A DNA stretch of 64,000 bases, taken from positions 1 to 64,000 of the IMG/VR virus record IMGVR_UViG_3300009149_000016. One strand, given 5' to 3'. Under the pieces are notes generated by a model. That model ran no database searches. It worked only from the letters and a program-made list of their open reading frames with translations, and was not told the DNA's origin. The position numbers were made by a program, and so were the translations under genes. This DNA is from a virus. This document shows, piece after piece, positions 12,211 to 51,938 of the stretch (position 1 is the stretch's first letter; each line of letters begins with the position of its first letter).

Positions 12211-12732
12211 ATGGCTGACATCGTATTCAACGAGCAAATCGTTGGCACCATCGCGCTTTCAGAGCACACGAGCCCTAAGGTCGCCCAGCAAGAGAACATC
12301 CTGCGAGCGGCTCATGGCGCATTCGAGATCTTTCGGAGCCTGCCGGAAGGTACCAACCTTCAGGACTTCCTGACCGCCCTGGCTCTGTCGCTCGATCTTC
12401 CAAAGCCCGAACTGGTGCAAGCGTACTTCCGGCAAGCAGGCTTGATGCACGTCGCCGCTGGGATGGACGCCGCCGACATCTGTCCCATTTGCAGTGAGGC
12501 GGTCGAGGACCACGCAGTCTCCCGTGACTGCGCCCGCTGGCGCCTCACGACCTTGTGCACCGGTCAACCCGTCAGGTACCAGGTTGCCGAGAGCGCAAGG
12601 GCTCCCTTCGAAGCGTTGCCTGAACAACCCGACGTGCCGGTTTGGACGCCACCTGAGACGCCCGCTCCCGCCGCAACGAACTTCTACTACAGCAGTTTCG
12701 AGAATCTACCCGACTGGGCGACTACTGAGTGA
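12211..12732 (+). CDS. Hypothetical protein
   Basis: 173-aa ORF with CxxC. Confidence 0.6.
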   Translation: MADIVFNEQIVGTIALSEHTSPKVAQQENILRAAHGAFEIFRSLPEGTNLQDFLTALALSLDLPKPELVQAYFRQAGLMHVAAGMDAADICPICSEAVEDHAVSRDCARWRLTTLCTGQPVRYQVAESARAPFEALPEQPDVPVWTPPETPAPAATNFYYSSFENLPDWATTE

Positions 12733-13278
12733 CGCCAGGCGGTGCCGAAGCACCACCCTTGATGCAAGCTTGGCTTCTGAATTCATCGGAATGGTGACGA
12801 TCATCCGGTCGTCATAACTATCCCCCGCCCAGATCACGACTTCAGCGCTCGTCCACTCGACCGGCGTCTCAAAGTCCTTCGACTTCGGCCGTTCCTTGGC
12901 GTCGCAGTAGGAAAGCGTCACGTGCGGATGGAAGTCTGGGAATTTCTTGCTGTACTCGACCCCGGCCTTGTCGAACGCTTTCTTCATGGCTTCCCGGAGC
13001 TTCATCAAGTCCGGAGAGTCAACGGGGCAGATCACAGGAACCGTTTCCTCGCCCGGGAAGGTGTCCAGACCCTTGCACACGCATTTGACGGGCTTGGTAG
13101 CGCTCACCACGTCGAAAGCCGCTAGGGCAGCCTTTGACACCTCTTCCATGGGCACTTCGTCGCCCATGTAGAACATCGTGATGTGGAAGGTCGATGAGCT
13201 TTCCGGCGTGCCTGGGACCTTGATTCGGGCAAGCTGGCGAGCGATCTCATGTGGGAGTTGAATTCCGAGGAATGCCAT
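12706..13278 (-). CDS. 2H phosphoesterase (2'-5' RNA ligase/Acb1-like); tag B (LASRVVLRH)
   Basis: Two HxT motifs: FHITM and PHVTL. Confidence 0.85.
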   Translation of the reverse strand: MAFLGIQLPHEIARQLARIKVPGTPESSSTFHITMFYMGDEVPMEEVSKAALAAFDVVSATKPVKCVCKGLDTFPGEETVPVICPVDSPDLMKLREAMKKAFDKAGVEYSKKFPDFHPHVTLSYCDAKERPKSKDFETPVEWTSAEVVIWAGDSYDDRMIVTIPMNSEAKLASRVVLRHRLASLSSRPVG

Positions 13279-13570
13279 CCGCCGACTGTACCACGCTCAG
13301 ATAACGGCTCGCTACCCTTTCAGCCATCGAGGACTTCCGTCGCCACTTACCCCCGGCGAGGTTGTAGATCTTGACTGACCAACCGGTTGCGTTTGGGCTC
13401 GGCCATTGCCGGTACCCAGCACCGTTGTTCGGAGATTCGTAGGTTTTGCCGTTGCCCACGTCGAGTGTCTTGCGATCTCCCTTGGCGAGATCAGTCACTT
13501 GACTCCACAAATTGGAATTCGTGGGTTCCCAGTCATCGGAAGGGTTTGGTTCTGTCTTGAGGCCACCCAT
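13247..13570 (-). CDS. Hypothetical protein; C-terminal tag B (MAERVASRY)
   Basis: WPSPNATGW..Y..AGGKW looks like a conserved viral motif. Confidence 0.65.
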   Translation of the reverse strand: MGGLKTEPNPSDDWEPTNSNLWSQVTDLAKGDRKTLDVGNGKTYESPNNGAGYRQWPSPNATGWSVKIYNLAGGKWRRKSSMAERVASRYLSVVQSADGIPRNSTPT

Positions 13571-13593
13571 ACCTTGGGCGACCGACAAGAACC

Positions 13594-14037
13594 CTATTGG
13601 TCGTCAGGCTCGTCCTCGAAAAGGTCTTCGGTCAAGGTCTTCCGACGATCCATTTCCTTGTGGTACGCCGTGAGGGCCTTTTCCCAATCGGCTTTGATCA
13701 TGAGTCGCATGCTGAAAAAGATAGGGTAACCGTTGATCGACGTGGGGACCGCCTTGTCCATGTACTCGTAGACGATGCCCAACTCGGCTCGGTCACGCTC
13801 CGGGATGCTTTCGAGGCCACCGAGCGCCAACGGCAGGAAAATCATCGGCGCCAAGCTGGCGATCTGTTCCGGGCCACCTTTGATGTGGTCGGTCGTGAAG
13901 ACCTGACCATCGCACATCGCCATGACGAACTTGGCAAGATCCTTGCGGCCCATCGCTTCGAGGGTGGCCGGACGCAAGTCCTTCCAGGCTTCGTTGAATT
14001 CGTCGAGCGGTTCGGGGGGAGGTGGGGGATCAGACAT
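13594..14037 (-). CDS. Hypothetical protein
   Basis: GGTGTA-N10-ATG. Confidence 0.7.
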   Translation of the reverse strand: MSDPPPPPEPLDEFNEAWKDLRPATLEAMGRKDLAKFVMAMCDGQVFTTDHIKGGPEQIASLAPMIFLPLALGGLESIPERDRAELGIVYEYMDKAVPTSINGYPIFFSMRLMIKADWEKALTAYHKEMDRRKTLTEDLFEDEPDDQ

Positions 14038-14046
14038 TCACCAGCA

Positions 14047-14268
14047 CTACACCGACAGAGGGTTCCAGAACCAAAGGCCAAAGCTGGCACCACTTGTGTA
14101 CTTCACAGTCCCTCGGTCCCCGACCTTGTCCCGGTCGCCCATGGGGGCCCCCAAGCCGACGAGCCGGTAGGTGGCTCCATCATCGGCTTGGACCTTCCAG
14201 ACGTAGCCGTTGTCGGCTTCGGGCCCTTCGATGATGGTTGCGGGGCGGGGGGTCTTGACGTCAGACAT
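14047..14268 (-). CDS. Hypothetical protein
   Basis: AGGAG SD before MSDVKT. Confidence 0.65.
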   Translation of the reverse strand: MSDVKTPRPATIIEGPEADNGYVWKVQADDGATYRLVGLGAPMGDRDKVGDRGTVKYTSGASFGLWFWNPLSV

Positions 14269-14276
14269 GGTGTCTC

Positions 14277-14609
14277 CTAGTATCCGATCAGTTGCTCGAC
14301 GACCTTGTCGAGGAGCATGAGGGCTACCTGGCGGGGCTCGGTGTCGGTCGCGCCGCCAGCTTCGCACTTGCAGGCCACCGGCCACACATACTGCTCGTAG
14401 AGGCTCTCAGCGACGTGTCCGTTGAATTCGCCACGCGCTCGGAGGGTGCCCTTGCGGTTCTCGTTGGTGGCCTTGCGGCAAGCCTTGGTGAGCGCTGCGG
14501 TGAGCTTGACGGCGCTCTTGTAGGAGCCGGCCTGCTTGTAAAGCTGCCACTCGCTGCGCTTGGTGGGGACTTCGACTGAGGTGTATTCGGTGAGTTTGAG
14601 CGTCTTCAT
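14277..14609 (-). CDS. Hypothetical protein
   Basis: Apparently leaderless start at the class II motif. Confidence 0.7.
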   Translation of the reverse strand: MKTLKLTEYTSVEVPTKRSEWQLYKQAGSYKSAVKLTAALTKACRKATNENRKGTLRARGEFNGHVAESLYEQYVWPVACKCEAGGATDTEPRQVALMLLDKVVEQLIGY

Positions 14610-14645
14610 GCCCCTACTAAGGGACGGGGGCGCCCACGATCCACC
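14609..14645 (-). promoter_or_regulatory. Class II bipartite promoter-like motif
   Basis: GGTGGATC-N15-CCTTA-GTAGGGGC-ATG. Confidence 0.75.
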
Positions 14646-14667
14646 GCAATCGGTGTAGAATGTCGCC

Positions 14668-14967
14668 ATGGAGACCTTTTTGATGATCGTCGGATTTATC
14701 ATCTTGATTGTGGCTGCTTCCGCCGCCTTCGCCACGGGTCTCCATATCCGAGATCGGAGACGAGAGGATGCCGAGCGGGCTGCCAGGCGAGCCGAGTTGG
14801 AAGCGGGCGAAAAGTTGGTTCAGGAATTGGAAGCTGAAAGCGACCAGATCAACGCCACCCTCAGGCGCATTTCGATAAAGCATCACGAAAGACGGATGGC
14901 TGAAAAGGCCAAAGCCAAGGCTTCGAACCCGGGTTACACAATCTACGACCACATCAACGAGGCTTGA
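14668..14967 (+). CDS. Membrane-anchored coiled-coil protein, tag A (YTIYDHINEA*)
   Basis: N-terminal TM helix; GGTGTA-N10-ATG. Confidence 0.7.
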   Translation: METFLMIVGFIILIVAASAAFATGLHIRDRRREDAERAARRAELEAGEKLVQELEAESDQINATLRRISIKHHERRMAEKAKAKASNPGYTIYDHINEA

Positions 14968-14970
14968 ACC

Positions 14971-15477
14971 ATGGCCGAAAGTGCAGTCGAAAACCCACTC
15001 CCTCGCCTCATCCTGGTGATCACGTTCGCCCTGGTTTTCGGCACAGGGGCAATTCTCTCCCCGTACCTTGACCAAACCACTGTGTGGGTTGGCGTAGGTG
15101 GCGCGTGTGTGTGCTGGATCCTAGGCGTCCTTGGCTGGTTCTCGACCAAGGACCGTCCCGAGCACAAAGAACCGAAGCCTGAACCGAAGTGGTCCCCGGA
15201 GGCTATCAGGTGGAAAAAGCAGCGGGATGGTCTTCGAAGAAAGCTCGCTGAGATGCAAGTTGAAATAGCTGGGCTGACATCTGATCTTGAAACAACCAGA
15301 GTTGAGCGTGATTCCGAACGATATCAGCGAACTGAACAACTTCGGCTCCTGTTCGAGAAGTCTGTCTCGGAAGGCTTGACCAGCGCCAACCCAAACACGA
15401 CCTTGGGTTGGCCCCCGCCAGAGCCCCCGGCTCCCAAGCCCAAGACCATTTACGACCGCATCAATGAGGACGAATGA
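14971..15477 (+). CDS. 2-TM coiled-coil protein, tag A (KTIYDRINEDE*)
   Basis: Two hydrophobic segments, coiled coil, Pro-rich linker before the tag. Confidence 0.7.
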   Translation: MAESAVENPLPRLILVITFALVFGTGAILSPYLDQTTVWVGVGGACVCWILGVLGWFSTKDRPEHKEPKPEPKWSPEAIRWKKQRDGLRRKLAEMQVEIAGLTSDLETTRVERDSERYQRTEQLRLLFEKSVSEGLTSANPNTTLGWPPPEPPAPKPKTIYDRINEDE

Positions 15478-17947: not shown

Positions 17948-17978
17948 TCGAGCCGCCCCCCGCACCTTATGGGGTACA
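17942..17978 (+). promoter_or_regulatory. Class II bipartite promoter-like motif
   Basis: GGTTGATC-N15-CCTTA-TGGGGTAC-ATG. Confidence 0.7.
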
Positions 17979-18280: not shown

Positions 18281-18282
18281 AG

Positions 18283-23898: not shown

Positions 23899-24420
23899 AT
23901 GCCTGAAATCTTCAGAACACGAGACGTTGTGGTTTTCGTCAAGGGCGACACGTTCCCAGTGAAGCTCAACAACGCGCTTCTGCAAAGCGGGTGGGCCGGG
24001 GGCCAACTCGTCATGTGGGACGATGCCACAGACGATGACTTCCAAGTCCAATACTCCGATGGGCGCTTCGGAGGATTCCTTCTGTGGGGATCCGATGAGG
24101 ACAGCGACCAATACGTGTCCATGGTCGGCCAGCAAATCAAGTATGGTTACGCCGTCATGGCAATGGGCGGGTGGTCCATTTCGACCCGAACCTACGAGAA
24201 ATACACGTACGCCTCCCGAATCGCCGGCCCCTTGGTCCCCATCAACTACGTCGAAGGCGACTTCCTACGGATCAGCCTCCGGGGCTTGTTCACGGTCGAG
24301 GACGAGTGGACCTTGTCAGGTGACCCACGGGCCCCTGACCACTTCTGGGCTGGCGTCGTCATGCACGCACCCGATCTCGCCAAGAACAAGGACTACCTTG
24401 GCGTCCAGGCCAACCTCTAG
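23899..24420 (+). CDS. Hypothetical, possibly virion structural protein
   Basis: Beta-rich 173-aa ORF lacking class I/II motifs. Confidence 0.6.
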   Translation: MPEIFRTRDVVVFVKGDTFPVKLNNALLQSGWAGGQLVMWDDATDDDFQVQYSDGRFGGFLLWGSDEDSDQYVSMVGQQIKYGYAVMAMGGWSISTRTYEKYTYASRIAGPLVPINYVEGDFLRISLRGLFTVEDEWTLSGDPRAPDHFWAGVVMHAPDLAKNKDYLGVQANL

Positions 24421-30853: not shown

Positions 30854-31146
30854 GCGATAAGTGGAGCCAGCGCTTTGAAGCCTCTCGGCGTCGGCTAGCG
30901 CTCAAAGAGCGCGCCATCGCTCACATGGGGGGCAAGTGCCGCATCTGCGGGTATGCTCGGTGCCCCGCCGCTCTCGACTTTCACCACATCGAAGACACGG
31001 ACAAGGAATTCTCGATCTCGTCCAAGATGTCGTGGGTGAAGATCAAGCCCGAACTTGCCAAATGCGTGATGGTCTGCGCCAACTGCCACCGGGAGATACA
31101 TGCCGGATGGCACCCAGAGTGGCTACCTGACGACGGGCGAAGCTAG
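30850..31146 (+). CDS. HNH endonuclease
   Basis: GGKCRICGY..ALDFHH..KC.MVCANCHREIH. Confidence 0.85.
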   Translation: MSDKWSQRFEASRRRLALKERAIAHMGGKCRICGYARCPAALDFHHIEDTDKEFSISSKMSWVKIKPELAKCVMVCANCHREIHAGWHPEWLPDDGRS

Positions 31147-32672
31147 AGCCGCCTCAGATCGTAGACAACGAACTCTCGGTCAGAGAGCTTGACGGGTGAC
31201 TTCTGAATCAAGGATCTGCCCGCCGAAAGAGGAACGATCTTGGCGTCTCGCAAAACGACATCCCGATCCCAATAGACTTCCTCCACATGCGCCCCCTTGG
31301 GCACCGTGGGGGTTCGGAACACGATGGCGACGATTGGGTCGGAACCCTTGTTCTTGCTTCTCGTGTGAGTAAACTGAACACCCGGCAAGTAGGTGCCGAA
31401 GATGGTGCTCACGGCATAAACCTCATCGGGGCCAAACTTTTGGTAGGGGGGCTTCATAAGCAACTTGCCCGCCTCCATGACCTGATTTGCCCGAGAGAGC
31501 GTCGTGAAGTGTATGAACCGATCCAGCTTCAGCGGCGCTAGATAGATCCCGTCCTTCACATAGGTGAGGGGGGCTTTTGAGGTGTCTTCCTCCGGTTGGA
31601 AGTCGTGGCCGCACCTCTCGCATTCAGCCCCGTCAGAATCAAGGTAGATTTCCTTCGACCCGCACTGGGGGCAAATCAGCTTTGCTACCAAAACCCGGGC
31701 TAGTCGAACCCCTGGCAGCACCCCACGAAGCCACTGCATGGCCCGCTCAGGAAGGCTTCGGGGCCCATAAGCCACAAGATAGCCAATGGCTTCAGGAAAC
31801 GCTTCCTCTGGGGATGTCTTGCCGTACAGGCTGATACCCTCACCAAGCTGTGCCCAGGCTCGTGCTGCCTCCGTGTGTAATTTCTTCTCGTAAATCCAAT
31901 GGCCCATCTCGTGTGCCAAGATGTGAACAGCCTGGGGGACGGAAGCCCGCAAGAACTTAGGGACGCTGATCTGGATCCGCCCCCGGTGAAGCCTGCCGAT
32001 CCAATTGCCCGCCGCTCTGTCAAACCGAAGCTCGAACGGCAGTTGCCACTGAAGCATCCGGGGAAACGCACGACTGACCGCTCGCCGGTACTTACGCAAG
32101 ATCACTTCGATCTTGCCATAGGCTTTGGCATCGGCTTTCGGGTCAAACCCAACGAGCAGCGTATTGAAGCCCTCAATTTCCCTTCGAACAGGCTCCGAGG
32201 TGGGCTCCTCGAAACGTTCTTCCCACGCAAGACCATCTTCAAGTACACTCAGGGCGTCAACCCCCGCCGTCTGAAGATCGTTGACCCAATCATCCACTTG
32301 GTCTTCGAAAGCAGCGAATTCTTCCTCTTCGTCCGAGTCCTCTGCGTACTCACCACCCCAAAGCGCTGGCTCTTGGATGGGCAACTCCAAAAGCTGGAAG
32401 ATCTCCGTTCCGGCAGAAAGGAGCATGTCGCGCATGTCGCCAAGCTCTTCATCCCCTTGGTAACGCTCTTGGAGAGACTTGGCTGTCGCTTTGAAGCGGG
32501 CGAGCAAGCGATCTCGAAAGACGTCCAGAGCGTCCTTGATCTGCATGGCTTGCTCGTAGTCTTTGGCCCCCTGCACGAGCCGCACGAGTCGTGACAGATC
32601 GCCAAGCCAATCCTCGGAAGCTGTTTGGACCCACCGTTGGGCCACCCGAAGCGCCATTTGCCGATCCGACAT
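31143..32672 (-). CDS. Multidomain protein: tag B, zincin metallopeptidase, Zn ribbon, C-terminal enzyme-like domain
   Basis: N-terminal MALRVAQRW; HEMGH..YGKTSPEEAFPE; CPQC..CERC; FIHFT. Confidence 0.7.
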   Translation of the reverse strand: MSDRQMALRVAQRWVQTASEDWLGDLSRLVRLVQGAKDYEQAMQIKDALDVFRDRLLARFKATAKSLQERYQGDEELGDMRDMLLSAGTEIFQLLELPIQEPALWGGEYAEDSDEEEEFAAFEDQVDDWVNDLQTAGVDALSVLEDGLAWEERFEEPTSEPVRREIEGFNTLLVGFDPKADAKAYGKIEVILRKYRRAVSRAFPRMLQWQLPFELRFDRAAGNWIGRLHRGRIQISVPKFLRASVPQAVHILAHEMGHWIYEKKLHTEAARAWAQLGEGISLYGKTSPEEAFPEAIGYLVAYGPRSLPERAMQWLRGVLPGVRLARVLVAKLICPQCGSKEIYLDSDGAECERCGHDFQPEEDTSKAPLTYVKDGIYLAPLKLDRFIHFTTLSRANQVMEAGKLLMKPPYQKFGPDEVYAVSTIFGTYLPGVQFTHTRSKNKGSDPIVAIVFRTPTVPKGAHVEEVYWDRDVVLRDAKIVPLSAGRSLIQKSPVKLSDREFVVYDLRRL

Positions 32673-32673: not shown

Positions 32674-33690
32674 CTACTTGACCTTGCCGCCCTGCATGAA
32701 GTCCTCTTCCAGCCCGGGCACAAGGTACTGACTCCGAAGCGTGGAAGGCTCGTGGCCGACTGCCCCGGCTGTCTCCTCAAGCGCCTTGGCGAACTCGTCC
32801 TTCAGTTTCTTCTCACGCTTCTTTGGGTCGCTGGGCAGCGTGCCCTTGCGGTTGGCCTTGAGGCGCTCTCGCATCTCTCGGTTCGCATGGAACCCTCGCA
32901 AGTCCTTGGCTGTGACGCCGAATTCCTTCAGGTAGGCGTTGATATCCCCTGCCACCACATCACCGAACAGTTCCTCTGACTCGGCGCCGTCGTAGGCCGA
33001 CTTGAGCGCCTTGACGAGCTTGCTGTCCGTGACGGTCTTGTGTTGCTCGACGCCGGACTTGCCGATGTACTTGACCGTCGCACTGCCACCACTGAACGTG
33101 ACGTGCTTCTTTCGCCATTCCGAAACACCGAAGTGTCCGTCTTTGGCTGAACCCGGGTTGCCAATGCGCTCGAAGGTCGCGTCGATGAGCCCAACGATCA
33201 AAGCCGCTTTGGAAGTGCTGAGATCCTTGTTGACCTTCGACCGAAGCTTGCCGATGGCCTTTTCGAGCTTGGCGAGCCGCTCGGCCTTCTTTCGGTTGCG
33301 GTCGGCTACCTGACGATCGCTGTACTCGTAGACGGTCATTTCATCGCCGTCTTGCGTCTTGACCTTCTTTTTGTTCTGGTAACGCGCTGCGACACGCTCG
33401 GCCATGGAGGCTGAGAACGGAACCCGGTCGTAAGAGTCCTCGAAGTCTTCGCAGGTCTCTTGGGCTTTTTCCCTCAACCGCTCTAGCTTACGCTTTTCCT
33501 TGGTCGCCCGTTCTTGCTCCCTGTACCAAGCGGTCTCGTACTGGTCCTGCTTTTTATCGCAGTCCTTTTCGAGCTTTGCCTTCTCCCGCTGGTCTTTCTC
33601 CCACTCTCGAATCGCCTTGGAGAGTTCATTGAAGGCGTTGTCCTGAAGCCATTCCTCGCTCTCACCCGGATGCTCTTCCAGGTACTCCAT
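32674..33690 (-). CDS. DNA topoisomerase IB-like protein, preceded by tag B (MAERVAARY)
   Basis: ERIGN, YIGKSG, TAKDLR, VGH..STLRSQY catalytic motifs; in frame with the upstream ORF across a single TAG. Confidence 0.85.
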   Translation of the reverse strand: MEYLEEHPGESEEWLQDNAFNELSKAIREWEKDQREKAKLEKDCDKKQDQYETAWYREQERATKEKRKLERLREKAQETCEDFEDSYDRVPFSASMAERVAARYQNKKKVKTQDGDEMTVYEYSDRQVADRNRKKAERLAKLEKAIGKLRSKVNKDLSTSKAALIVGLIDATFERIGNPGSAKDGHFGVSEWRKKHVTFSGGSATVKYIGKSGVEQHKTVTDSKLVKALKSAYDGAESEELFGDVVAGDINAYLKEFGVTAKDLRGFHANREMRERLKANRKGTLPSDPKKREKKLKDEFAKALEETAGAVGHEPSTLRSQYLVPGLEEDFMQGGKVK

Positions 33691-33744
33691 GAACTGTTCG
33701 GCCCGCTGATCGGGAGTGCCCTTGAACTTGTTCTTGAGCTTGTT

Positions 33745-34752
33745 CTAAGCGTGGGTGTACTCAGGCGGGATGTTGTTCAGCGCCCGCTCGTCATTTTCCT
33801 TCCGGCGCTGCCAACCAAGCTGCTGAGGGGACAGTTTGGCTTGGAAGCGAGACGCCACACGTTCGGCCATGATGTCGCTGAGAATGCGGTCTGACATTGC
33901 TTTGCTCCGATCTCGAACCTCTGCGAGCATCTTGGGGTCGGCATTGCGACCAATCTCTTCCAATTCCTCCCGAGTTGTAATCCGGGCGATCTTGGAGGCA
34001 AACTTTTGCAAGTCCTTGAAAGTCATGAAGCGTGCGGGGCCGGCTGCCTCGTGTTCCTCGACCTTGTTGCTCACCTCGTTGGGGGGTGAGGCCAAACACC
34101 AGTTCCAAAACTCAGGGGTGTCGCAGAACTTGCACGAGGTACCGGCTTCCTGCCAATCCTTCGAACCCGGCGCATAGCCCCAACTGAGGCCGAAGCGCCA
34201 AGCAAGGGTGTTGAGGCACCGCTCACAAGACCGGGCGGAAGCGATGATTGCATCCCCAAAGGGCAGCATGGGGGGCTTGCCGGCACGCTCAGTGGCTGTT
34301 TGAAACTCGTGGGGGGTAGGACGCACCATAGCGAGCACAAGGTCAGGAGAGTAGCCTGAGTGCCCCGTCATGACGTTGTCGAAACCGTGCGCTTCCCACT
34401 TCGTAGGCCACGGGGTGCCAATATCATGAAGCTGCGAACCCCCACACTCGACGCACTTGCGGCCTTCGAGGTGATCTTCCCACCCGTAGGTTGGAAGCAC
34501 CTTGGTATGGGGGCATCCTTCGACGACGCTGGGAAGAATCCGCTTCCTGACGTTCTCGGTCAACGTCATGGGGTCTTGGCTGATATAATAGGGGAAGGAA
34601 TCGGGAGGCTTGTCCTCCCAGGTGTCGACCTTGCCAGGGTCCCCATCACCCGGAATCCACTGCTCCCCTTCCTGATTCTCGTACCACATGGTCGGGAAAG
34701 GCGGTCGGATCGCGATCAAATATCGTGTGGCAATGCGCAGAGCGAGCGACAT
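33745..34752 (-). CDS. Cys-rich hypothetical protein with two tag B copies
   Basis: MSLALRIATRY at the N-terminus and internal MAERVASRF. Confidence 0.7.
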   Translation of the reverse strand: MSLALRIATRYLIAIRPPFPTMWYENQEGEQWIPGDGDPGKVDTWEDKPPDSFPYYISQDPMTLTENVRKRILPSVVEGCPHTKVLPTYGWEDHLEGRKCVECGGSQLHDIGTPWPTKWEAHGFDNVMTGHSGYSPDLVLAMVRPTPHEFQTATERAGKPPMLPFGDAIIASARSCERCLNTLAWRFGLSWGYAPGSKDWQEAGTSCKFCDTPEFWNWCLASPPNEVSNKVEEHEAAGPARFMTFKDLQKFASKIARITTREELEEIGRNADPKMLAEVRDRSKAMSDRILSDIMAERVASRFQAKLSPQQLGWQRRKENDERALNNIPPEYTHA

Positions 34753-34755: not shown

Positions 34756-35157
34756 TCAGCCCGCCTTGATTCGATCTCGAATGATCTGGCGTACGTCGAT
34801 CGGCTGAATCTCGATTTCGGTGGCGAGGCGCAAGTACCACCCGGTCTGCTTTTCGAAGGTGTCGATGAGTGAGTCGGCGTAGATCCCCCGATACTCTTTG
34901 ACTTTCTTGAGCCCCCGGGCCGACCCGTTGAAGAACGTCATATCGTAGGTGTCGTCCCCACGAAGCTCGACTTCACAGATGTTGCCCTTGCTCCGCTGCT
35001 TGTTGGGCCACTTGAACATGACACTTTTGCCGGTCTTTTTGATGACCGACGCGCCAAGCATGGCGAACATGCGTCCACCACCCATTTGCTCCAAGATGGT
35101 TCGGGCAACGTCCGCTTGTTTCAGGTAGCGCTCTGCGACTCGTTCGACGATCGACAT
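34756..35157 (-). CDS. Hypothetical phage protein; N-terminal tag B (IVERVAERY)
   Basis: TILEQMGGGRMFAMLGA..DDTYDM.F resembles a widespread phage domain. Confidence 0.75.
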   Translation of the reverse strand: MSIVERVAERYLKQADVARTILEQMGGGRMFAMLGASVIKKTGKSVMFKWPNKQRSKGNICEVELRGDDTYDMTFFNGSARGLKKVKEYRGIYADSLIDTFEKQTGWYLRLATEIEIQPIDVRQIIRDRIKAG

Positions 35158-35189: not shown

Positions 35190-35226
35190 GGTGGATTGGA
35201 ACCAGCCTGCCGCCTTAGAAGGGGCA
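35190..35226 (+). promoter_or_regulatory. Class II bipartite promoter-like motif
   Basis: GGTGGATT-N15-CCTTA-GAAGGGGC-A; no adjacent ATG. Confidence 0.7.
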
Positions 35227-41484: not shown

Positions 41485-42334
41485 GGTTCAAAAGGGGAAG
41501 CCTCTTGGTGGTGTCCCGTTTGAGGGGCGAAAGGCTTTCATCGGCACTGTAGCAGTATTGGCAGCCATACGTACAGGCTTCGTTGATCGTGAAGGGCTCG
41601 ACGCAGATGGCGCATCCGCACCCTTCCTTGACGGGCTCCGTCACGGGGGCGAACATGCTGCCATCCTCGCACACGCCGTGGGTGACGTACGTCGTGAGCC
41701 CATTATGTTGGGTCGGACCCGGCAAGGGGGTCGATTCCTCTCGGCAGACCTGCATCACGATGCCGTAGCGCTTGGCAATGGCCGACAGCCGGATCATGAG
41801 CTTGGCTCGTTGCTCCGGGGACCGCTTCTCAGGCATGCGGTCATTCTCCTGCAAGAACGACACGTACACCTTGTTGACGTGCCATTCGAGCCCCTGGGCG
41901 ATCTGTTCGAACCGAGCAACCACTTGCTCATCCGGGATCATGGGTATCGGGCTGAACCGCCACACGACCCGGTCAGGACCGAGAGCGTCCGCAAGCTGGC
42001 GGGTGTGAAAGAGCACCTCCGACAGCGGGGGTACCTTCCACTCAACCTCGTGCCACCCCGTGATCGTCACATGCGCCCGCATGGAGTACCGCTGGCGGTT
42101 GAGCTTGGCCCACTTCGCAAGAGGCTCCGGGTTCTTGGTCCAGAACACGAGCCCGAGTACATCGGCGGGTTGAAGGCTCCAACGATAGGGGAAGGCACTG
42201 CGAGGATCGAAAGCCACCATGTAGCCCTGATCGATTTGTTGCTCGAACCATGCCCACTTGTCCCCCGCACAGATGTCGGTCCACCGGCTCAGACTGTAGG
42301 GTAGGTTCTCCGCTCTGCCCGTCTTCATCTCCAT
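41471..42334 (-). CDS. DUF1848 family (radical-SAM-like) protein
   Basis: SLSRWTDI, VFWTKNP, VVWRFSPI, GCGC, CTYGCQYCY; start placed by GGTGTA-N10. Confidence 0.85.
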   Translation of the reverse strand: MEMKTGRAENLPYSLSRWTDICAGDKWAWFEQQIDQGYMVAFDPRSAFPYRWSLQPADVLGLVFWTKNPEPLAKWAKLNRQRYSMRAHVTITGWHEVEWKVPPLSEVLFHTRQLADALGPDRVVWRFSPIPMIPDEQVVARFEQIAQGLEWHVNKVYVSFLQENDRMPEKRSPEQRAKLMIRLSAIAKRYGIVMQVCREESTPLPGPTQHNGLTTYVTHGVCEDGSMFAPVTEPVKEGCGCAICVEPFTINEACTYGCQYCYSADESLSPLKRDTTKRLPLLNHGRA

Positions 42335-44206: not shown

Positions 44207-44209
44207 GAG

Positions 44210-45439
44210 CTACTTGTCGGTCTTCTTACGGGGCTCGTGCCGCCAGGCCGAGCCCTCTACTTTGTCAGCAAGACTTGCACAGAACGCGCCGGGGTCGTCG
44301 ATCTTGCCTTCCATCTTTTTGATGCAGGCGGTGACCTTGTGCTTGTTGTCGCCCGTGAGCTTGCCCCAGAACTTTTTGACGCTCTCATCCGTCCAGCCCT
44401 TCGGCAGCTTGTTCCACTTGCCAGCCTCTACGGTCACCAAGTCGCTTCCGAACACCAGGGAGGCCCGAACGCACCGGATGCTGTTGGAAGCCATCTTCTC
44501 GGCGCACTTGGGGCAGATCTCGGCCATCATCTTCTGATCGACCCAGAAGTCCGACAACGGCTGCGAACCGATGTGCTCGGCTGCGACCCGAAGGGTCATG
44601 TCGGAAGCGGTCTTGTTTTCTTTTCTGAGGTGGTCAAACAGTGCGCCCATGGCGTATTTCTCCCGTGGGGCAATTTCATTCCACATCTCGTCAACGACGT
44701 CTTTGATTGCCCAATCGATCTCTTGCGGCTGGTTTTCGACGTCAAGCCCCTGGTCCGTCAGGTACTTCCAGACCTTGTCGTAGGAGAATTCGCTCCCCCG
44801 GCCTGTCAACTTCGCCATGATGTGGCTGATCGCCTGGCGCTCCGGGGTCCAAAGGTCAGACATCGACGGGTCTACTTTGAAGTCGAACGGAAAGACCCCT
44901 CGACGAACGTTGTCGATGGCTCGTTCCAGGTCGCGCCGGATGAATTTGTCGAAGTAGTAGCGAACCTGAACCTCGATCTCCCGGGTCCAATCGTCCTTGT
45001 TCTCTTCAATGGAATCTTGGAGGCTTTTGAGAACCTTGTCTGCAAGCTTGCGCATGAAGCGCTCAATCCGGCGAAACGTCTTGTTGTCAACCCGGTTGAT
45101 CTGTCCCTTGCGGTCAAGCTGGACAATCTTGGCTGACATCTGGTTCGCTCGGCCGTAGACCTTTTCGTTGCCGTCGGTCGCACGCCACATGGCGACCATC
45201 TTGCGTTCCGTGTCGTAAACCCAAAGGTACTTCCACTTGTTGCCGGAAGGGAGCTTGATCAACCGTGCGCCGCCAGGTACCTCTTCCTCATCCCCTAAGG
45301 CATCCATGAGGGGACCAGCATCGGTCGAGAGGTTATAGGTCTCACCATCGATCTTGACGGTGGGCACACCCGGCTTGCGTTGCAGCGGGATCACATCACC
45401 AGAAAAGCGTTGAACGATTCTTTGTACCAAGGGATCCAT
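44210..45439 (-). CDS. Multidomain hypothetical protein with tag B variants
   Basis: N-terminal LVQRIVQRF; internal MTLRVAAEH. Confidence 0.7.
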   Translation of the reverse strand: MDPLVQRIVQRFSGDVIPLQRKPGVPTVKIDGETYNLSTDAGPLMDALGDEEEVPGGARLIKLPSGNKWKYLWVYDTERKMVAMWRATDGNEKVYGRANQMSAKIVQLDRKGQINRVDNKTFRRIERFMRKLADKVLKSLQDSIEENKDDWTREIEVQVRYYFDKFIRRDLERAIDNVRRGVFPFDFKVDPSMSDLWTPERQAISHIMAKLTGRGSEFSYDKVWKYLTDQGLDVENQPQEIDWAIKDVVDEMWNEIAPREKYAMGALFDHLRKENKTASDMTLRVAAEHIGSQPLSDFWVDQKMMAEICPKCAEKMASNSIRCVRASLVFGSDLVTVEAGKWNKLPKGWTDESVKKFWGKLTGDNKHKVTACIKKMEGKIDDPGAFCASLADKVEGSAWRHEPRKKTDK

Positions 45440-45868: not shown

Positions 45869-46306
45869 CTACACCATCCGGCCGTCTTTCGGGTACCACA
45901 GGCGAGGCATGAGACGACGCAAGGTCAGGATGGTCGAATCACGAGCAGTTCCGTTGAGAGTGAACCGGGATGGGCGTCGCGCATTTCTAACCACCGCATG
46001 GGGTTGGTTCATCCGCTCCGTGTAGTCGAGCCACGCCTCCCACGCTTGCTGGGGCGTGAAGTGTGACGGCACGTTGAACTCGATTCCCCGTTTCGAAAGC
46101 CACACTTCCCAGTTCGGACGCTCCCAGACCCAGTAGCGGCGATGCCCCAAGACAAGGCACTGGGTTTGACGCCCGAGCCAATGCCTGTGGGCATCTACGA
46201 GCCGCCCTCCCTCATCAGAAAGGGCAAACGAGAATCTCAGGTAGTCTTTAGCGAATTCAGGCCCGAACAGGTCTGATTGACTCACGATGTTGAGGATGGG
46301 GACCAT
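45869..46306 (-). CDS. Hypothetical protein
   Basis: ORF in chain. Confidence 0.55.
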   Translation of the reverse strand: MVPILNIVSQSDLFGPEFAKDYLRFSFALSDEGGRLVDAHRHWLGRQTQCLVLGHRRYWVWERPNWEVWLSKRGIEFNVPSHFTPQQAWEAWLDYTERMNQPHAVVRNARRPSRFTLNGTARDSTILTLRRLMPRLWYPKDGRMV

Positions 46307-46307
46307 G

Positions 46308-47171
46308 TTACTGAGCTTGTAGTTTCGCTTGGAAGTATTTCTTGAACAGCTTTGCTGTCGTCGAACCAATGGCTTTTCGAGCCTCCTTGCTATCGACGAT
46401 CTCCCCTGCACCCTCGCGCAAGACATCCTCCGTCATCGCTTGGATGACTTCTTTGGTCCGTTCCATCCCGATGTCGCCCTCGATCTTGTCCAGGACATGC
46501 TCAAGGCGAGTCGGAGTCACCCACTCATCGGCGATGGCTTGCGCTTCCTCCAACACCTTGAGCTTTTCCGGGTCGACTACCTGGCGAGGCGTATTGGTCT
46601 CCCGCTCCTCATCTCGCTTGTGCTTCGAAAGGACACGCTCCCCCCGGTGGTCTCGGTATTCCGTCAACGGACGAAGCACGACACCTTCACGGGGTTGAGG
46701 TTCTTCAATCCCATTGCGAACCGCTTGAACACTCGGCGCATCCCGCTGCTTGTCGATCTCTTCCACGGTGGCCGCAATCCGCTCATAGTGGACGAATTCC
46801 AAGCTAAGTTTGGTCGCAACATTATGGGCGTTTTCGACGGACAGCCACGTGTCATCGATCTTGACCTCAAAGGCAGCGAACTTCAGATCCTTGCCGTATC
46901 TCCAGGTCTGCTTTTGCTGACTCCCACCATACGCTTCGCCGTAGACAACCACGGTCGGATGACCCAGCGCCTCGAAGGCTTTCACAAGCGCAGCCTCATC
47001 GAACAGCGACCGAAAGCGTTCCGCCTTCGCGCCGCCCGACGAGAATTGCAACTTGCCATCCCGCCATTGGATGCTGGTTGACGTCCCATGGAGCTTTTCC
47101 AAGGCAAAGCATTCCTTGAAGGCTAGGATTCCCTGGTTCTTATAGAGGTTCTCGATGTGTCGGTAGCCCAT
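46308..47171 (-). CDS. RNA ligase, Rnl2 family
   Basis: EKLHGTS (I), YGE (III), FAAFEV (IIIa), EGVVLRP (IV), KHK (V). Confidence 0.85.
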   Translation of the reverse strand: MGYRHIENLYKNQGILAFKECFALEKLHGTSTSIQWRDGKLQFSSGGAKAERFRSLFDEAALVKAFEALGHPTVVVYGEAYGGSQQKQTWRYGKDLKFAAFEVKIDDTWLSVENAHNVATKLSLEFVHYERIAATVEEIDKQRDAPSVQAVRNGIEEPQPREGVVLRPLTEYRDHRGERVLSKHKRDEERETNTPRQVVDPEKLKVLEEAQAIADEWVTPTRLEHVLDKIEGDIGMERTKEVIQAMTEDVLREGAGEIVDSKEARKAIGSTTAKLFKKYFQAKLQAQ

Positions 47172-47177
47172 TTGATC

Positions 47178-47363
47178 TCATCTTTCGTTGCAGAAAGGAA
47201 TCTTCTTCCGCTCCATCTCGGCCTTGGCCTGGCAAGAGATACACCAGGCCACTTCAGGCCAGTTGGCTCGGCTTTTTTGACAGGTGGTGCCCTGCATCAT
47301 GCAAGGCTTCTTTCCAAGCTCTAGAAGCTTCGCATAGGGCAGGGCTTCGAGGGGGCGTTTCAT
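47178..47363 (-). CDS. Small Cys-rich protein
   Basis: ATGA overlap with clpX. Confidence 0.5.
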   Translation of the reverse strand: MKRPLEALPYAKLLELGKKPCMMQGTTCQKSRANWPEVAWCISCQAKAEMERKKIPFCNER

Positions 47364-48622
47364 CCCTTGGCCTGCTTTTTCTCCTCTTGCTGGATCGCTT
47401 CATCGATCCGGGCTTCGGCCCCCTCGACCACCAACTCAGTAACGTGGATCGCCTTCATGTCGGGGTCAGAGGGCGCGTCGAACATGTAGGGCTCCAAGAT
47501 AGCCTCAACGATCCCTCGGAGCGCTCTTGCCCCCGTGGGCTTCTCGCAAGCCTTGCGAGCGATGGCATGCAGGGCATCATCGTCGAACGAAAGGGCAACC
47601 TCATCGATCGTGAACAGCGCTTCGAACTGCTTGACCAGGGCGTTCTTGGGTTCGGTCAGGATACGCACCATCTCATCCTCGGTCAGGGGAAGCGTGCTGG
47701 TGATCACCGGCAGCCGGCCGAGAAGCTCAGGGATCAGACCAAAGTCGAGGATATCATCCTCGGTAATGTTGCCGTAAACCTCATCGGCCTTGATCCTGTT
47801 GGGCTGCCCCCCGCCGAATCCGAGCCGGGCGCCCTTGTTCCGGCGCTCGCCCACGACTTCCTCGATCCCGGCGAACGATCCCGAACAGATGAACAGGATG
47901 TTGGTTGTGTCGATCATGTCGGAAGTACCCATCCCGATCTTCGAACCCATCCCACGAGGCACGGGCACAACCCCACCCTCGACAAGCTTCAGAAGGGCTT
48001 GCTGGACGCCTTCACCGGACACATCTCGGTACCCCGTCGCTCCCCGCCCGCTCTTGCGGGTGAGCTTGTCGATCTCGTCCACGAAGATGACGCCCCACTC
48101 GGCGCGCTCGATATCCCCATCGGCGTCCTGAATGAGCCCCTGAAGCATCGTCTCGACGTCATCACCGACGTAGCCAGCTTGCGTCATGCGCGTCGCATCC
48201 GACACGTAGAAGGGCAGCTTGAGCATACGTGCCACCGACCGAGCGATGTGGGTCTTGCCGGTACCCGACGGGCCCATGAGCAAGATGTTGGACTTGTCGA
48301 TTTCGATATCGCCCGCAATCCCGTCCTTGACTACGCCACGTCGTTTGAAGTGGTTGTAGACCGCAATGGCAATCGCTCGCTTGGCACGGTCTTGGCCGAT
48401 CACATGCTCGCTGAGGATCTTGAAGATCTCACGGGGCTTGAGAAGGATGTCATCCCCGCCCTGTTCCGCAGCTTCCTTGTTGCGGTTGGTGATCGCCTTG
48501 ACGGCAGAATCAATGCAGCGGTTGCAAATGAAGGGTCCTTCGTCACCACCCGAGATGATGTGCTTCACCTCGTTGGAAGGGCGACCGCAGAAGGAGCAGA
48601 CTTGACGCTTGGCTCTGGGCAT
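47360..48622 (-). CDS. clpX: ATP-dependent Clp protease ATPase subunit ClpX
   Basis: CSFCG ZBD, KSNILLMGPSGTGKT, AGYVGDDVE, FVDEIDK, RDVSGEGVQQALLK, LGF loop, TGARALR. Confidence 0.95.
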   Translation of the reverse strand: MPRAKRQVCSFCGRPSNEVKHIISGGDEGPFICNRCIDSAVKAITNRNKEAAEQGGDDILLKPREIFKILSEHVIGQDRAKRAIAIAVYNHFKRRGVVKDGIAGDIEIDKSNILLMGPSGTGKTHIARSVARMLKLPFYVSDATRMTQAGYVGDDVETMLQGLIQDADGDIERAEWGVIFVDEIDKLTRKSGRGATGYRDVSGEGVQQALLKLVEGGVVPVPRGMGSKIGMGTSDMIDTTNILFICSGSFAGIEEVVGERRNKGARLGFGGGQPNRIKADEVYGNITEDDILDFGLIPELLGRLPVITSTLPLTEDEMVRILTEPKNALVKQFEALFTIDEVALSFDDDALHAIARKACEKPTGARALRGIVEAILEPYMFDAPSDPDMKAIHVTELVVEGAEARIDEAIQQEEKKQAKG

Positions 48623-48658
48623 GCCTCAATCTACACCGGCACGGAGCCGGGAGCGAGG

Positions 48659-49393
48659 CTAGATCTCACCCATCACGAAGCAAGGCTCACTCCACTTGAG
48701 ACCTTCACATTCGACCAATCCGTGCGGATGAATCACGCACACGCCACCTTCCCCGAAATTGTTGGGAAGCTCTTTGCCATATCGGTTGGCAACGACCAAC
48801 ACACACTTATTGTCCTTGGCGAATTCCATCCATGTAACGGCAGGAAAACCCCCATCGCCCCAGTTGGCACTCATCGCCACGATATCCGCATCCCCGGGAT
48901 CGTAGAAGTAAGACCCTTTCTCGGTGGCCTTGTCTCGAATGTCCCGACAGATCAACAACCCCATCTTCAGCATCCGCTTGCCGTCAAGGATATGGATCAC
49001 GGGAGGATTGTCGAAACCAGGATCAGCCCAAAGAAAGTCGTTCCCCCACCGGTTGATCTTGTTGTAGCTCTGGTAGTAGCCCCCCGGCGTCACCAGCACT
49101 TGGCTATTGAACAGATGATCGTCGACATGGGAGACCATTCCCCACACGATATCCACGTTATATCGCCGAGCGACTTCCATCATGACCTTGAGCGTTGGCC
49201 CAGTGCTGATGTTCTCGGAGAGCTTCCAGGCGTCTTCCTTGTTCATGATGGAATAGCCCGTCGTGCAAAGCTCTGGTAGCACCACTAGCCTCGCGCCCGC
49301 TTTGGCAGCATCGACCACCAGCCGGGCTGCTTGTAGCAGGTTGACCTCTTTTTTTCCAAAGACGGGCTGAAACTGAACGGCTGCAACCTTCAT
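48659..49393 (-). CDS. Carbon-nitrogen hydrolase (nitrilase family)
   Basis: E-K-C triad: LPELC, YNK, LICRD. Confidence 0.9.
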   Translation of the reverse strand: MKVAAVQFQPVFGKKEVNLLQAARLVVDAAKAGARLVVLPELCTTGYSIMNKEDAWKLSENISTGPTLKVMMEVARRYNVDIVWGMVSHVDDHLFNSQVLVTPGGYYQSYNKINRWGNDFLWADPGFDNPPVIHILDGKRMLKMGLLICRDIRDKATEKGSYFYDPGDADIVAMSANWGDGGFPAVTWMEFAKDNKCVLVVANRYGKELPNNFGEGGVCVIHPHGLVECEGLKWSEPCFVMGEI

Positions 49394-50733
49394 GCGTCTA
49401 CCACCAATTCCTCGAACAAAGCTGCTTGGGACGGGGGAAGCTCGCCCAAACAGTAAAAAGCGAACATTTCGGCAAAGTTCTCATCTGGGCTTGTCTTGGC
49501 GTACGGGGTGATGAACCCCTTGAAATCGTTCTTGAGCATCCTTGGGTCGATGCCCTTGAGTCTCAGGTACCCGAACAGGTTGATCTCCGCTGTATCAATA
49601 GAGAAGCTGCGGCGGGTGATGATGTCGATGAGCATCTTCTTTTCCCGCTCTTGCTCTGGCGTGAGAACCCCTTTGAACAGATCGGGAGCCTGCTTTTCCG
49701 CAGAACGAAGCACCTGAGCTTCAAGCTCTTTCTTGTCCTTGTCCGTCAGGACTTTCCGAAGATGAACCTTGTCTTTCTTCATGTACGTGACTTCGTACGT
49801 CTCGCCCTTATCCGTGATGGTGTCACCACGTTCGGGACGATAACCAAGGAAGTCGCTCTGATACCCATCCTCGGCGGCATTGTAGAGGATCTTGGGCACA
49901 CGCTTGTTTTTCAAGAACTTGTTTTCGTACCGATGACCAAGCTCATGAATGATGGTGCGCACGGAGCTTCCCGCCGCAATTTTCTTGTCAGCACGAACGA
50001 AGAATTCATCCGACCCGTAAACGTAGAACGCAAGTACGTTCCCTTTGTCGATCGACTGGCTGATATGAACCTCGCCGTAGCAGACCTTGCCAAGCCCAGC
50101 GGTTGTGATCTCCGATGCAGCCTCTTTGACTGCCTTAGCGCAGATGTCCATCACACCATCGGGGAAGCCACCCATGTTGATGAGGGTGAAGGGTCCGGCC
50201 TTGACCTTCACGGGGTCGTCGGCATCACCCACCGCAATCTCACGACCCTTGCTCAGCGCTTCTTCCAGCGTACTGAAATGCGCCCGAAGGGTATCGAGGT
50301 ACTTGAGATAGTACGTCAGGTAAGCATCGGTGCGCTCCAAGTCCTTCCTTGGGAGGCGGGGGCGGCGGTTGGTTTTCTTCGTCGCCCAAAACTTGACGAG
50401 CTTCTCGACCTTCTTACGCAGCGTTGCTGACAGGCTGTAGGTCTGGAGGATCGCCATCGAGATCCCCCACATCTGGTTGAACCGCTGATTGAAGCCGACC
50501 ACCTCGGACATGATTGTGAACATGTCCCGACCGAAATCGGGTTTTGCCACGTCCTTGCCACGAGCCAAGTCCTTTTTGTACTGCGAAAGGATGGCTTGGA
50601 ACCGCTCGGCGTCCTTCTCAGCGTTGTCGTAAAGGTCGAACTTGCGCCGAAGCTCTTTGAGAAGTGCTTTCGGATCCTCGACGACCGCTGCCTCCAAGTA
50701 CCGGGTGGCGACTCGCTCAGCATGAACGCTCAT
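49390..50733 (-). CDS. Zincin-like metallopeptidase; N-terminal tag B (HAERVATRY)
   Basis: IHELGH and distal YAKTSPDENFAE. Confidence 0.7.
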   Translation of the reverse strand: MSVHAERVATRYLEAAVVEDPKALLKELRRKFDLYDNAEKDAERFQAILSQYKKDLARGKDVAKPDFGRDMFTIMSEVVGFNQRFNQMWGISMAILQTYSLSATLRKKVEKLVKFWATKKTNRRPRLPRKDLERTDAYLTYYLKYLDTLRAHFSTLEEALSKGREIAVGDADDPVKVKAGPFTLINMGGFPDGVMDICAKAVKEAASEITTAGLGKVCYGEVHISQSIDKGNVLAFYVYGSDEFFVRADKKIAAGSSVRTIIHELGHRYENKFLKNKRVPKILYNAAEDGYQSDFLGYRPERGDTITDKGETYEVTYMKKDKVHLRKVLTDKDKKELEAQVLRSAEKQAPDLFKGVLTPEQEREKKMLIDIITRRSFSIDTAEINLFGYLRLKGIDPRMLKNDFKGFITPYAKTSPDENFAEMFAFYCLGELPPSQAALFEELVVDA

Positions 50734-51938
50734 GCCAACCACCGGTTGGCAACTCGGAGGGCCACACGATCCGCCCCGGACTGAACGAGCCTCGTGAGCC
50801 GGTCTTGAAGCTCTCGTGGCTTGACGAAGGGGTCGTCCAGGATCAGATCCCGGGCCATGTCCACAGCTTTGCTAATGGCGGCTCCCTTGATGCCCGTATC
50901 CTGAATGAGCCGTCGGGTATCAATCGGCGGCTTCAAAAGCTTGTTGTAGACATCTTCCAAGTCGTCATAGCCGAGCTTGCTCTCAATCCGGCGAAGCATC
51001 CGGAGATGTTCAGGACGGAGCTTGTCCAACCCTACCGGAATCTCGAAACCGGCGAGCGTCAAAAGCAGATCGATGTTCTTGACTCGTTGTCCCACGGCTC
51101 GACGCAAACGGCTTGCCGGAAACATCGAAAGCACAGGATCGAGAAGTCCGAGCCCCTTCATGATGGTGAGCGCCTTTTTAGCGCCGGGCAGCTTCAGGAT
51201 CTTGTCGAAGAAAAGCTCGTCGATCGCCTCGTACGAAACCCTTTTGATTTCCTTGGCTTTGCTCTTGATCGCCCGCCGAGTCGCCGGGTCCAATTCGAAA
51301 CCGTATTTCACAGCAAAACGAATCGCCCGAAGCATCCGGGTCGGGTCGTCATCGAAGGTCTCGTTGGGGTCAAGAGGCGTCTTGACGATCTTGTCCTGCA
51401 AGTCCTTGAGCCCAAGCCCGGTCAAGTCGAGGATGGCTTTCTTGTCGGGACCTTGAGCCACATCGAGAAGCCGCCACACGAGCGCGTTGAACGTGAAGTC
51501 CCGGCGAAGCATGTCTTCGAGGATTGTTCCGGGCTCGACCTTCGAAGGCTTGTGACTCCCCTTTTCCTCTCCCTTGCCCTTTTCGTACTTCTCTTTGCGA
51601 GAAGTCACGATCTCGATCTTCTGTCCTTTGAGGTTGACCCCGTCGAATTCAACGTCCACGGGGACAGGTCCAATGTGCACGACGCCGTATTGGTCGGCCT
51701 TGACGTTGGGTACCTGAAGGGCATCGGCAACCGCTTCGGCGAGCGTGACGGCATTCTTGCCGTTTTTCGGCTCGACCACCACGTCGACATCTTTGAAGTC
51801 GAACCCCAAAGCGAAGTCCCGGGGGGCCCCGCCCACGATGTAACTGTGACTGGCCATACCAAGCCGTTTGGCGGTGGCTGACAGCAGTTTGACCAAGGCG
51901 TTGGCCTGTTGGGGGGTGGCGTCGGCAAGTCGGAACAT
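50730..51938 (-). CDS. cca: CCA-adding enzyme/poly(A) polymerase family nucleotidyltransferase; C-terminal tag B (VALRVANRWLA*)
   Basis: VGGAPRD, DVDV, DMLRRDFTFNAL, DDPTRMLRAIRF. Confidence 0.9.
   Translation of the reverse strand: MFRLADATPQQANALVKLLSATAKRLGMASHSYIVGGAPRDFALGFDFKDVDVVVEPKNGKNAVTLAEAVADALQVPNVKADQYGVVHIGPVPVDVEFDGVNLKGQKIEIVTSRKEKYEKGKGEEKGSHKPSKVEPGTILEDMLRRDFTFNALVWRLLDVAQGPDKKAILDLTGLGLKDLQDKIVKTPLDPNETFDDDPTRMLRAIRFAVKYGFELDPATRRAIKSKAKEIKRVSYEAIDELFFDKILKLPGAKKALTIMKGLGLLDPVLSMFPASRLRRAVGQRVKNIDLLLTLAGFEIPVGLDKLRPEHLRMLRRIESKLGYDDLEDVYNKLLKPPIDTRRLIQDTGIKGAAISKAVDMARDLILDDPFVKPRELQDRLTRLVQSGADRVALRVANRWLA

Follow-up and report, generated by a model that had tools for sequence, protein, structure and literature searches.

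Shared capsid-targeting and cargo-loading peptides are a known kind of signal. Examples are the cargo-loading peptides of encapsulins and the targeting tail at the C-terminus of the HK97 prohead protease, short peptides that dock cargo inside an HK97-fold shell; these occur only at termini, and where they bind the shell is known. The XB tail of SspB, a short basic-hydrophobic peptide at a flexible end, tethers proteins to ClpX. In phage T4, the internal proteins and Alt have a common capsid-targeting sequence (CTS), which is enough to bring a foreign protein into the prohead's scaffolding core (PMC3012670). Phage polyvalent proteins are predicted to be packaged in the capsid and delivered with the DNA, with a zincin-like peptidase as a hub (Iyer et al. 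2017, PMC5512222). Here, we describe a short peptide, tag B, in the first 64 kb (the window) of the virus contig IMGVR_UViG_3300009149_000016 of IMG/VR, which is 107,136 bp long and has 58% G+C. Judged from its sequence and placement, tag B is a portable signal at the protein level, carried by effector-like enzymes and able to stand at either end of a protein or between modules. Literature searches found no paper describing the motif, be it its sequence, its use at either end or between modules, or its breadth in an uncultivated clade.

The core of tag B, R-[VI]-[AV]-x-R-[YFW], occurs 10 times in the 130 predicted proteins of the contig (33,823 amino acids), compared with a mean of 0.19 and a maximum of 2 in 2000 per-protein shuffles. 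The nine-residue form of the motif is observed 9 times against 0.01 expected, and the reversed motif does not occur in these 130 proteins. All the instances listed in an earlier note on this DNA are present at their places on the minus strand. When the whole contig is scanned, the motif is in strong excess rather than at background frequency, and its placement is mostly terminal. The codons for Arg, Val, and Ala vary among the copies, which indicates selection on the peptide; a DNA-level repeat was rejected on this ground.

All copies are in minus-strand genes of the 12.7–51 kb region; most are no more than 17 residues away from a terminus, and there are zero copies in the 61–107 kb region, which holds replication genes and giant tail-like proteins. 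Five copies begin at residues 3–7 (genes 31143, 33745, 34756, 44210, and 49390), and three are near the C-terminus, namely those of the CCA-adding enzyme (2 residues from the end), the 2H phosphoesterase (5), and gene 13247 (17). The remaining two are internal, one ahead of the topoisomerase IB (Topo IB) domain and one 32 residues before the end of gene 33745. The tag sits outside the conserved domains, in agreement with the earlier claim that the tag sits at termini or domain boundaries. When 31 instances from four genomes are combined in a profile, the consensus is hydrophobic-[A/S]-x-R-V-A-x-R-[Y/F/W]-L-x-x-A, about 10–13 residues long, in which both Arg are invariant by construction because the instances were picked through the R…R core. 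We infer that the hydrophobic spacing (positions 1, 2, 5, 6, 9, and 10) suits an amphipathic helix in which the same flank bears both Arg. The weak instances are the two copies of gene 44210 and the 2H copy, which has His at the aromatic position.

The contig is a fragment, since its first gene is truncated, a terminal repeat is absent, and circular closure would run the first gene into the next. Its far end holds a replication block (DNA polymerase, primase, and DnaB-like and SNF2-like helicases) as well as the giant tail-like proteins. The large proteins searched included no recognisable major capsid protein (MCP), portal, or terminase, and the rest of the contig has no evident gene for one either. 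A megablast search with 22 kb against a phage collection gave zero matches, and no tRNA genes were found in the window. The nearest relatives are three IMG/VR contigs, G001 (322 kb, syntenic), G002 (149 kb), and G003 (167 kb), and the huge-phage record LR745208.1 (485 kb). The MCPs of the relatives (293–298 amino acids) match phrog_2522 and the capsid protein of Bacillus phage G, PDB 6WKK (E = 2e-59), and the MCP of the clade, as a relative of PDB 6WKK, is of the HK97 fold. By homology, the source of the contig is a huge phage related to Bacillus phage G. Public data hold more than 2000 MCP homologues, the top 120 at 81–89% identity; the cultured relatives found are Tunturiibacter phage Tunturi_5, which infects an acidobacterium and whose MCP is 50% identical, and phage G, with an MCP identity of 38%.

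The tag is widespread in this clade. Among homologues of the Topo IB, many of them on contigs of 100–570 kb, 103 of 119 have the tag and 28 have two or three tags; the positions are N-terminal, C-terminal, and internal, and most homologues start with the tag. G001, G002, and G003 have 4–10 strong tags each. Hundreds of related phages use the tag, often beside the portal gene. Across the clade the carriers include Topo IB, zincins, 2H proteins, HAD phosphatases, the CCA enzyme, and many unassigned domains; Pfam and PHROGs give no family for most of the tagged proteins of the relatives. The earlier description of the carriers as effector-like enzymes holds in that zincins, 2H, CCA/nucleotidyltransferase, and Topo IB proteins are among them.

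Several lines of evidence point to portability. The tags lie outside the Pfam domains of the 2H protein, the CCA enzyme, and the Topo IB. The phrog_9437 domain of gene 34756 has 2572 relatives and occurs in proteins of up to 2427 amino acids; its conserved part begins at residues 13–17, after the tag, and the homologue of gene 34756 in phiM12 starts right past the tag position. Only 5 of 150 family representatives have the tag (145 are without it), and its side varies: it is N-terminal to the domain in gene 34756 and its closest homologue, directly C-terminal in three, and about 85 residues downstream in the fifth. Tags are also found at joints between modules. For example, in G001 the Topo IB is fused to the counterpart of gene 31143, which stands behind it, with a tag variant at the joint; in LR745208.1 a HAD phosphatase is fused to Topo IB via a diverged tag; and a 1248-amino-acid protein of G003 consists of 2H, tag, Topo IB, tag, coiled coil, and tag. 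Comparison of these gene structures indicates that fusion and fission occur at tags. In an AlphaFold2 model of the tag with Topo IB (58-row alignment, mean predicted local distance difference test score (pLDDT) 91), the tag is a short helix leading into a beta-hairpin, with a pLDDT of 51–73 compared with more than 90 in the core; this low confidence speaks for a flexible tag.

In the relatives, tags concentrate around the head genes. The gene order in G003 is TerL, portal, five genes, prohead protease, an acidic scaffold-like protein, decoration protein, and MCP. Four of the five genes between portal and protease are tagged. In order, the products of the five are a 142-amino-acid protein tagged at its C-terminus, a HAD phosphatase whose C-terminus has a tag variant, a polyprotein with three tags, an untagged 235-amino-acid protein, and a 187-amino-acid protein in which the tag is internal. 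In LR745208.1, a distance of 7 kb separates the Topo IB and MCP genes, which share a strand. A sample of 80 portal loci, fetched with 10-kb flanks, comprises 58 distinct loci, and these have 61 tags on the strand of the portal gene versus 2 on the other. Certain positions recur: about 20 loci have a tagged small protein 5–6 kb upstream of the portal gene, about 12 have a tagged Topo IB upstream of it at a distance of about 3 kb, and at least 8 have, directly after the portal gene, a protein of 1000–1300 amino acids with a tag near residue 70 and sometimes again inside. Seven distinct neighbourhoods of the replicative helicase have 1 weak tag, whereas 6.7 are expected at the density around portal genes (p = 0.009); the latter density is about 8 times that around the helicase. 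Likewise, 5 of the 9 tagged proteins of the contig have a homologue within 10 kb of the portal gene of a relative, compared with 9 of the 121 untagged ones (p = 7e-4). The tag was not found on any MCP, portal, protease, scaffold, or replication gene examined, nor on the giant tail-like proteins of the contig.

We propose, with what we consider a roughly even chance of being right, that tag B is a portable helical docking tag that would load enzymes of the polyvalent type into the procapsid. It would act as an amphipathic docking helix with two invariant Arg, placed at either end or between the modules of accessory enzymes, and would dock these enzymes on a common component inside the assembling procapsid. 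The docked enzymes would then be packed with the DNA and delivered into the next host. Optionally, the prohead protease might trim past the downstream Ala, a step with which the Ala enrichment is compatible.

Tag B resembles the T4 CTS in being a short peptide common to otherwise unrelated proteins of the anti-defence type and lying outside their folded domains. In contrast to the T4 CTS, which is N-terminal only and removed by gp21, tag B has an unrelated sequence, may be N-terminal, C-terminal, or interdomain, and is retained at least on Topo IB. Support for packaging by tag B comes from gene neighbourhoods. Encapsulin and HK97-protease peptides are likewise short; the sequence of tag B differs from theirs.

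With the polyvalent proteins of PMC5512222, the carriers of tag B have in common a zincin-like peptidase, a nucleotidyltransferase, nucleic-acid enzymes, and multidomain strings beside portal and terminase genes. HExxH metallopeptidases of the zincin type are encoded in the window by genes 49390 and 31143; the Pfam match to Peptidase_Mx1 is weak. Several effector domains per polypeptide are found in the relatives (the 1248-amino-acid protein of G003, the portal-adjacent proteins of 1000–1300 amino acids, and the phrog_9437 proteins of up to 2427 amino acids), while the effector modules of the window are mostly separate genes. Similarly, it is in the relatives that the carriers are seen beside head genes of a portal-terminase phage. 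By this comparison, the cargo repertoire is of the polyvalent-protein type, which fits the loading reading. Unlike polyvalent proteins, many of the modules are separate genes, each of which keeps its tag, and a search of PMC5512222 by terms met no mention of a shared inter-module or terminal peptide.

A second ending, tag A, is found in 12 predicted proteins of the window (3668–39327). These proteins end in T-x-[WYF]-[DE]-[RHL]-[LIM], often with an acidic tail after it; examples are genes 5377–6441, 7504–7926, and 14971–15477. As the earlier note held, no protein has both tags: tag B genes are confined to the minus strand, and plus-strand genes make up 11 of the 12 with tag A. A broader proposal, tentative and to our mind somewhat doubtful, is that in this abundant, phage-G-like uncultivated clade one position-independent peptide code loads a changing set of anti-defence and takeover enzymes for co-injection, and that tag A is a second, orthogonal C-terminal code for a different class of plus-strand, probably early, proteins. 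If this were true, the tag would be a programmable cargo-loading handle, and the injected arsenal of a huge phage could be read directly from sequence. As a head-loading signal, the tag would allow the injected arsenal of hundreds of uncultivated huge phages to be listed (topoisomerase IB, tRNA-repair-type enzymes, and peptidases). Cargo addressing would then work from either end or from inside a polyprotein, unlike the T4 and encapsulin signals, and would offer a compact handle to pack foreign proteins into large capsids. Should the reader prove to be something else, the conservation of a ten-residue code throughout so large a clade would still point to a hub protein not yet recognised.

Several observations weigh against head loading. 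The genome-wide density of tags in G000–G003 (0.3–0.9 per 10 kb) is similar to the portal average (0.53 per 10 kb); therefore, what carries the enrichment is chiefly its contrast to replication and tail regions together with certain syntenic positions, and there is no sharp peak. The tagged genes of the window lie away from any portal or MCP gene, and the head module is not on the contig. Thus, the association with structural modules that the earlier note expected is seen in the relatives, with tags around portal and head genes, but not in the window, where no head genes are adjacent. Tunturi_5 and phage G, the only cultured relatives found, are without the tag, as is the G001 orthologue of the zincin of gene 49390. 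The scaffold-like proteins encoded between the protease and decoration genes carry no tag and were rejected as tag carriers. They share the C-terminal motif L-W-E/K-S-A-P-D-V-S-K/T-V-F, which is probably their coat-binding end; since this motif differs, the tag is no simple copy of the coat-binding end of the scaffold. Of the earlier idea of a head-loading tag, then, the portable signal, the fusion and fission points, and the head-gene neighbourhood in relatives stand in its favour, whereas the scaffold uses a different C-terminal motif. As for cleavage, in more than 100 homologues the Topo IB tag is fused directly to a conserved basic (Lys-rich) N-terminal stretch with no Ala site, so that removal of the tag cannot be general. 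A complex prediction for the G001 MCP (36-row alignment) with the first 45 residues of a cognate N-tagged 129-amino-acid protein gave ipSAE interface scores of 0.00 and 0.00; having been run without controls, it counts neither for nor against binding.

The tag could instead be a recognition or junction element for polyprotein processing by zincin-like peptidases or the prohead protease, in which case terminal tags would be remnants of polyproteins that were cut or split. Tags do stand at module boundaries where fusion and fission occur, and two of the tagged proteins are HExxH zincins, a predicted hub of polyvalent-protein processing according to PMC5512222. As the earlier note had noticed, an Ala soon follows the motif: it lies 2–5 residues past the aromatic residue in 21 of the 31 instances of the four genomes, compared with 29% expected (p = 7e-6), although the same enrichment would also be expected of a continuing helix. 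The prohead protease of G003 (469 amino acids) has about 160 C-terminal residues that are absent from the protease of tagless Tunturi_5, which is a lead only, also in regard to a reader of the tag. However, many tags begin at the extreme N-terminus (residue 3 onwards) of single-domain proteins, where there is nothing to cut off, and the C-terminal tag of the CCA enzyme and the N-terminal tag of the zincin stand back to back, which argues that each module has its own tag rather than one common linker site. The retained Topo IB tag speaks against processing as well. The earlier suggestion of cleavable polyproteins is thus upheld as regards polyproteins in relatives (the 1248-amino-acid protein of G003 and the Topo IB fusion of G001) and not as regards general removal. 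We regard processing instead of loading as unlikely; the two are compatible, and the T4 signal does both.

Other hubs in the infected cell can also be considered. The tag might dock the enzymes on phage DNA or RNA, on a replication or transcription factory, or on a membrane site, with nothing virion-related involved. Many carriers (Topo IB, the CCA enzyme, 2H, HAD) act on nucleic acids, two invariant Arg and an aromatic residue could contact nucleic acid, the Topo IB tag runs into a Lys-rich stretch, and the tagged genes of the window are outside a head module. Yet tags are almost absent from the neighbourhoods of replication genes, and the replication proteins themselves have none; the tags of the relatives concentrate beside portal, protease, and MCP genes; and zincins and many domains that do not act on nucleic acids are tagged too. 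Such a hub seems to us quite improbable. Tethering to a ClpX-type AAA+ unfoldase of phage or host, in the manner of the SspB XB tail, would make the tag a handle of the adaptor type, or a degron by which the lifetime of the enzymes is set. The window encodes a ClpX with a C4 zinc finger that matches the domain bound by this type of tail (47360–48622, minus strand), just downstream of the tagged CCA-zincin-nitrilase operon; a 529-kb relative (L088) has a 60%-identical ClpX 1.7 kb after its portal gene, beside a tagged gene; and the XB tail seems to resemble the A-L-R-V part of the tag. In contrast, no ClpX homologue was found in the tag-bearing G001, G002, G003, and LR745208.1, nor in more than 1 of the 58 portal loci, so the tag and a phage ClpX do not co-occur in most tag-bearing relatives. 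The tag is modelled as a helix, whereas the XB peptide binds as a strand, and the enrichment around portal genes is left unexplained. ClpX tethering has, in our estimate, very little probability, and loading into the procapsid is the reading retained here.

The tagged genes of the window, which code for nine unrelated accessory enzymes, form three clusters, all on the minus strand. In the first, the 2H phosphoesterase gene (12706–13278) has a weak tag at 12742–12768 (5 residues from the C-terminus, position-specific scoring matrix (PSSM) score 20.0); the Pfam 2_5_RNA_ligase2 domain spans residues 10–152 and leaves the tag outside, and the G001 orthologue has a tag variant at the same place. 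Next to it, gene 13247–13570 (107 amino acids, family unassigned) has its tag at 13301–13327, 17 residues from the C-terminus, and its residues 16–81 have homologues within 2.2 kb of the portal gene in two relatives.

The second cluster begins with gene 31143–32672 (509 amino acids), whose N-terminal tag (residues 6–14) is at 32631–32657. Its product contains a zincin motif (HExxH) and a Zn ribbon, followed by a C-terminal domain that is found near the portal gene in four relatives: in L125 and L133 it is 2.6–4.9 kb downstream on the strand of the portal gene, and in the other two it is upstream on the opposite strand. In gene 32674–33690, the tag (33379–33405, residues 96–104) is directly ahead of the topoisomerase IB module, where Pfam Topoisom_I spans residues 130–317. 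Gene 33745–34752, which encodes a Cys-rich protein of 335 amino acids, has an N-terminal tag at 34720–34746 (residues 3–11, PSSM 29.8) and a second one at 33844–33870 (32 residues from the C-terminus, PSSM 30.4). These two genes share a frame, and only a TAG and 18 sense codons lie between them (33691–33747); because the corresponding modules are fused in relatives, read-through or a recent split is possible at this place. Gene 34756–35157 (133 amino acids), with the mobile phrog_9437 domain, has an N-terminal tag (residues 3–11) at 35125–35151.

Further along, gene 44210–45439 has a weak N-terminal tag-like copy (residues 4–12) at 45404–45430 (PSSM 18.4) and a second weak copy at 44573–44599; the N-terminus of its G003 orthologue differs, and homologues lie 9.2 kb from the portal gene in two relatives. 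The zincin-like metallopeptidase gene 49390–50733 (HExxH) has an N-terminal tag at 50698–50724, and the G003 orthologue retains the N-terminal tag. The adjoining gene 50730–51938, of the CCA-adding/poly(A) polymerase family, has a C-terminal tag at 50739–50765 (residues 392–400 of 402), 2 residues before the stop, and its Pfam domains stop at residue 271. A core-only match at 41954–41980 (minus strand), inside a DUF1848 domain (residues 16–264), is not counted as a tag: it is mid-domain, lacks the flanking consensus, is below the PSSM threshold, and is probably due to chance. A tag-like stretch in the MCP (a conserved run at about residues 183–189) was considered as mimicry and dropped as a probable coincidence.

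Gene 23899–24420 (plus strand, 173 amino acids) was considered as a possible reader of the tag. Its AlphaFold2 model (pLDDT 88) matches the cement proteins of TW1, BB1, and HFTV1 and the base of the phi29 head fibre, and on this model the product is a protein of the capsid cement/decoration fold. Homologues stand just upstream of the portal gene, as 2–4 tandem paralogues, in 41 of the 58 relatives. The gene occurs together with the tag across genomes, and Tunturi_5 and phage G, which are tagless, lack it. As a reader of the tag it is an unlikely candidate, since the proteins matched by the model are external and a role inside the head is thereby made improbable.

Gene 5377–6441 (plus strand, 354 amino acids), with a tag A ending, has partial similarity to the major head protein of the clade (phrog_2522, E = 9e-20). 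Its residues 102–173 are 37–48% identical to the MCPs of relatives, and it has extra N- and C-terminal parts; the product may be a paralogue of the MCP, with another protein serving as the functional capsid subunit. In the head modules of the relatives, the scaffold-like proteins are acidic or Q-rich (G003 96260–97840, G001 80501–81883, and G002 66700–68010), and that of G003 has four tandem acidic helical repeats. The open reading frame (ORF) of the G001 prohead protease (L059:7631–10567) is 978 amino acids long and contains a large insert with PHROG matches to segments of ribonucleotide reductase and DNA polymerase, which suggests an intein. An adjoining ORF of 943 amino acids has LAGLIDADG and methyltransferase matches.

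Two short DNA elements recur near the genes of the window. Many genes of either strand and of every class have GGTGTAG beginning 15–16 nt ahead of the start codon (e.g., 7488, 35292, 48637, 60150, and 60587). Near-identical copies of CCC(T)TCTAAGG lie at 35219, 42914, 43816, and 52001 on the minus strand, and the reverse complement precedes three other genes. The assignment of the tagged operons to a promoter class was dropped, since GGTGTAG precedes all kinds of genes and CCC(T)TCTAAGG is present elsewhere too. By its placement, GGTGTAG resembles an element of translation initiation or of a near-leaderless promoter more than it does a promoter specific to one class. Both main tagged operons (starts 35157 and 51938) have CCC(T)TCTAAGG about 62 nt upstream, and the element is also present at two other sites.

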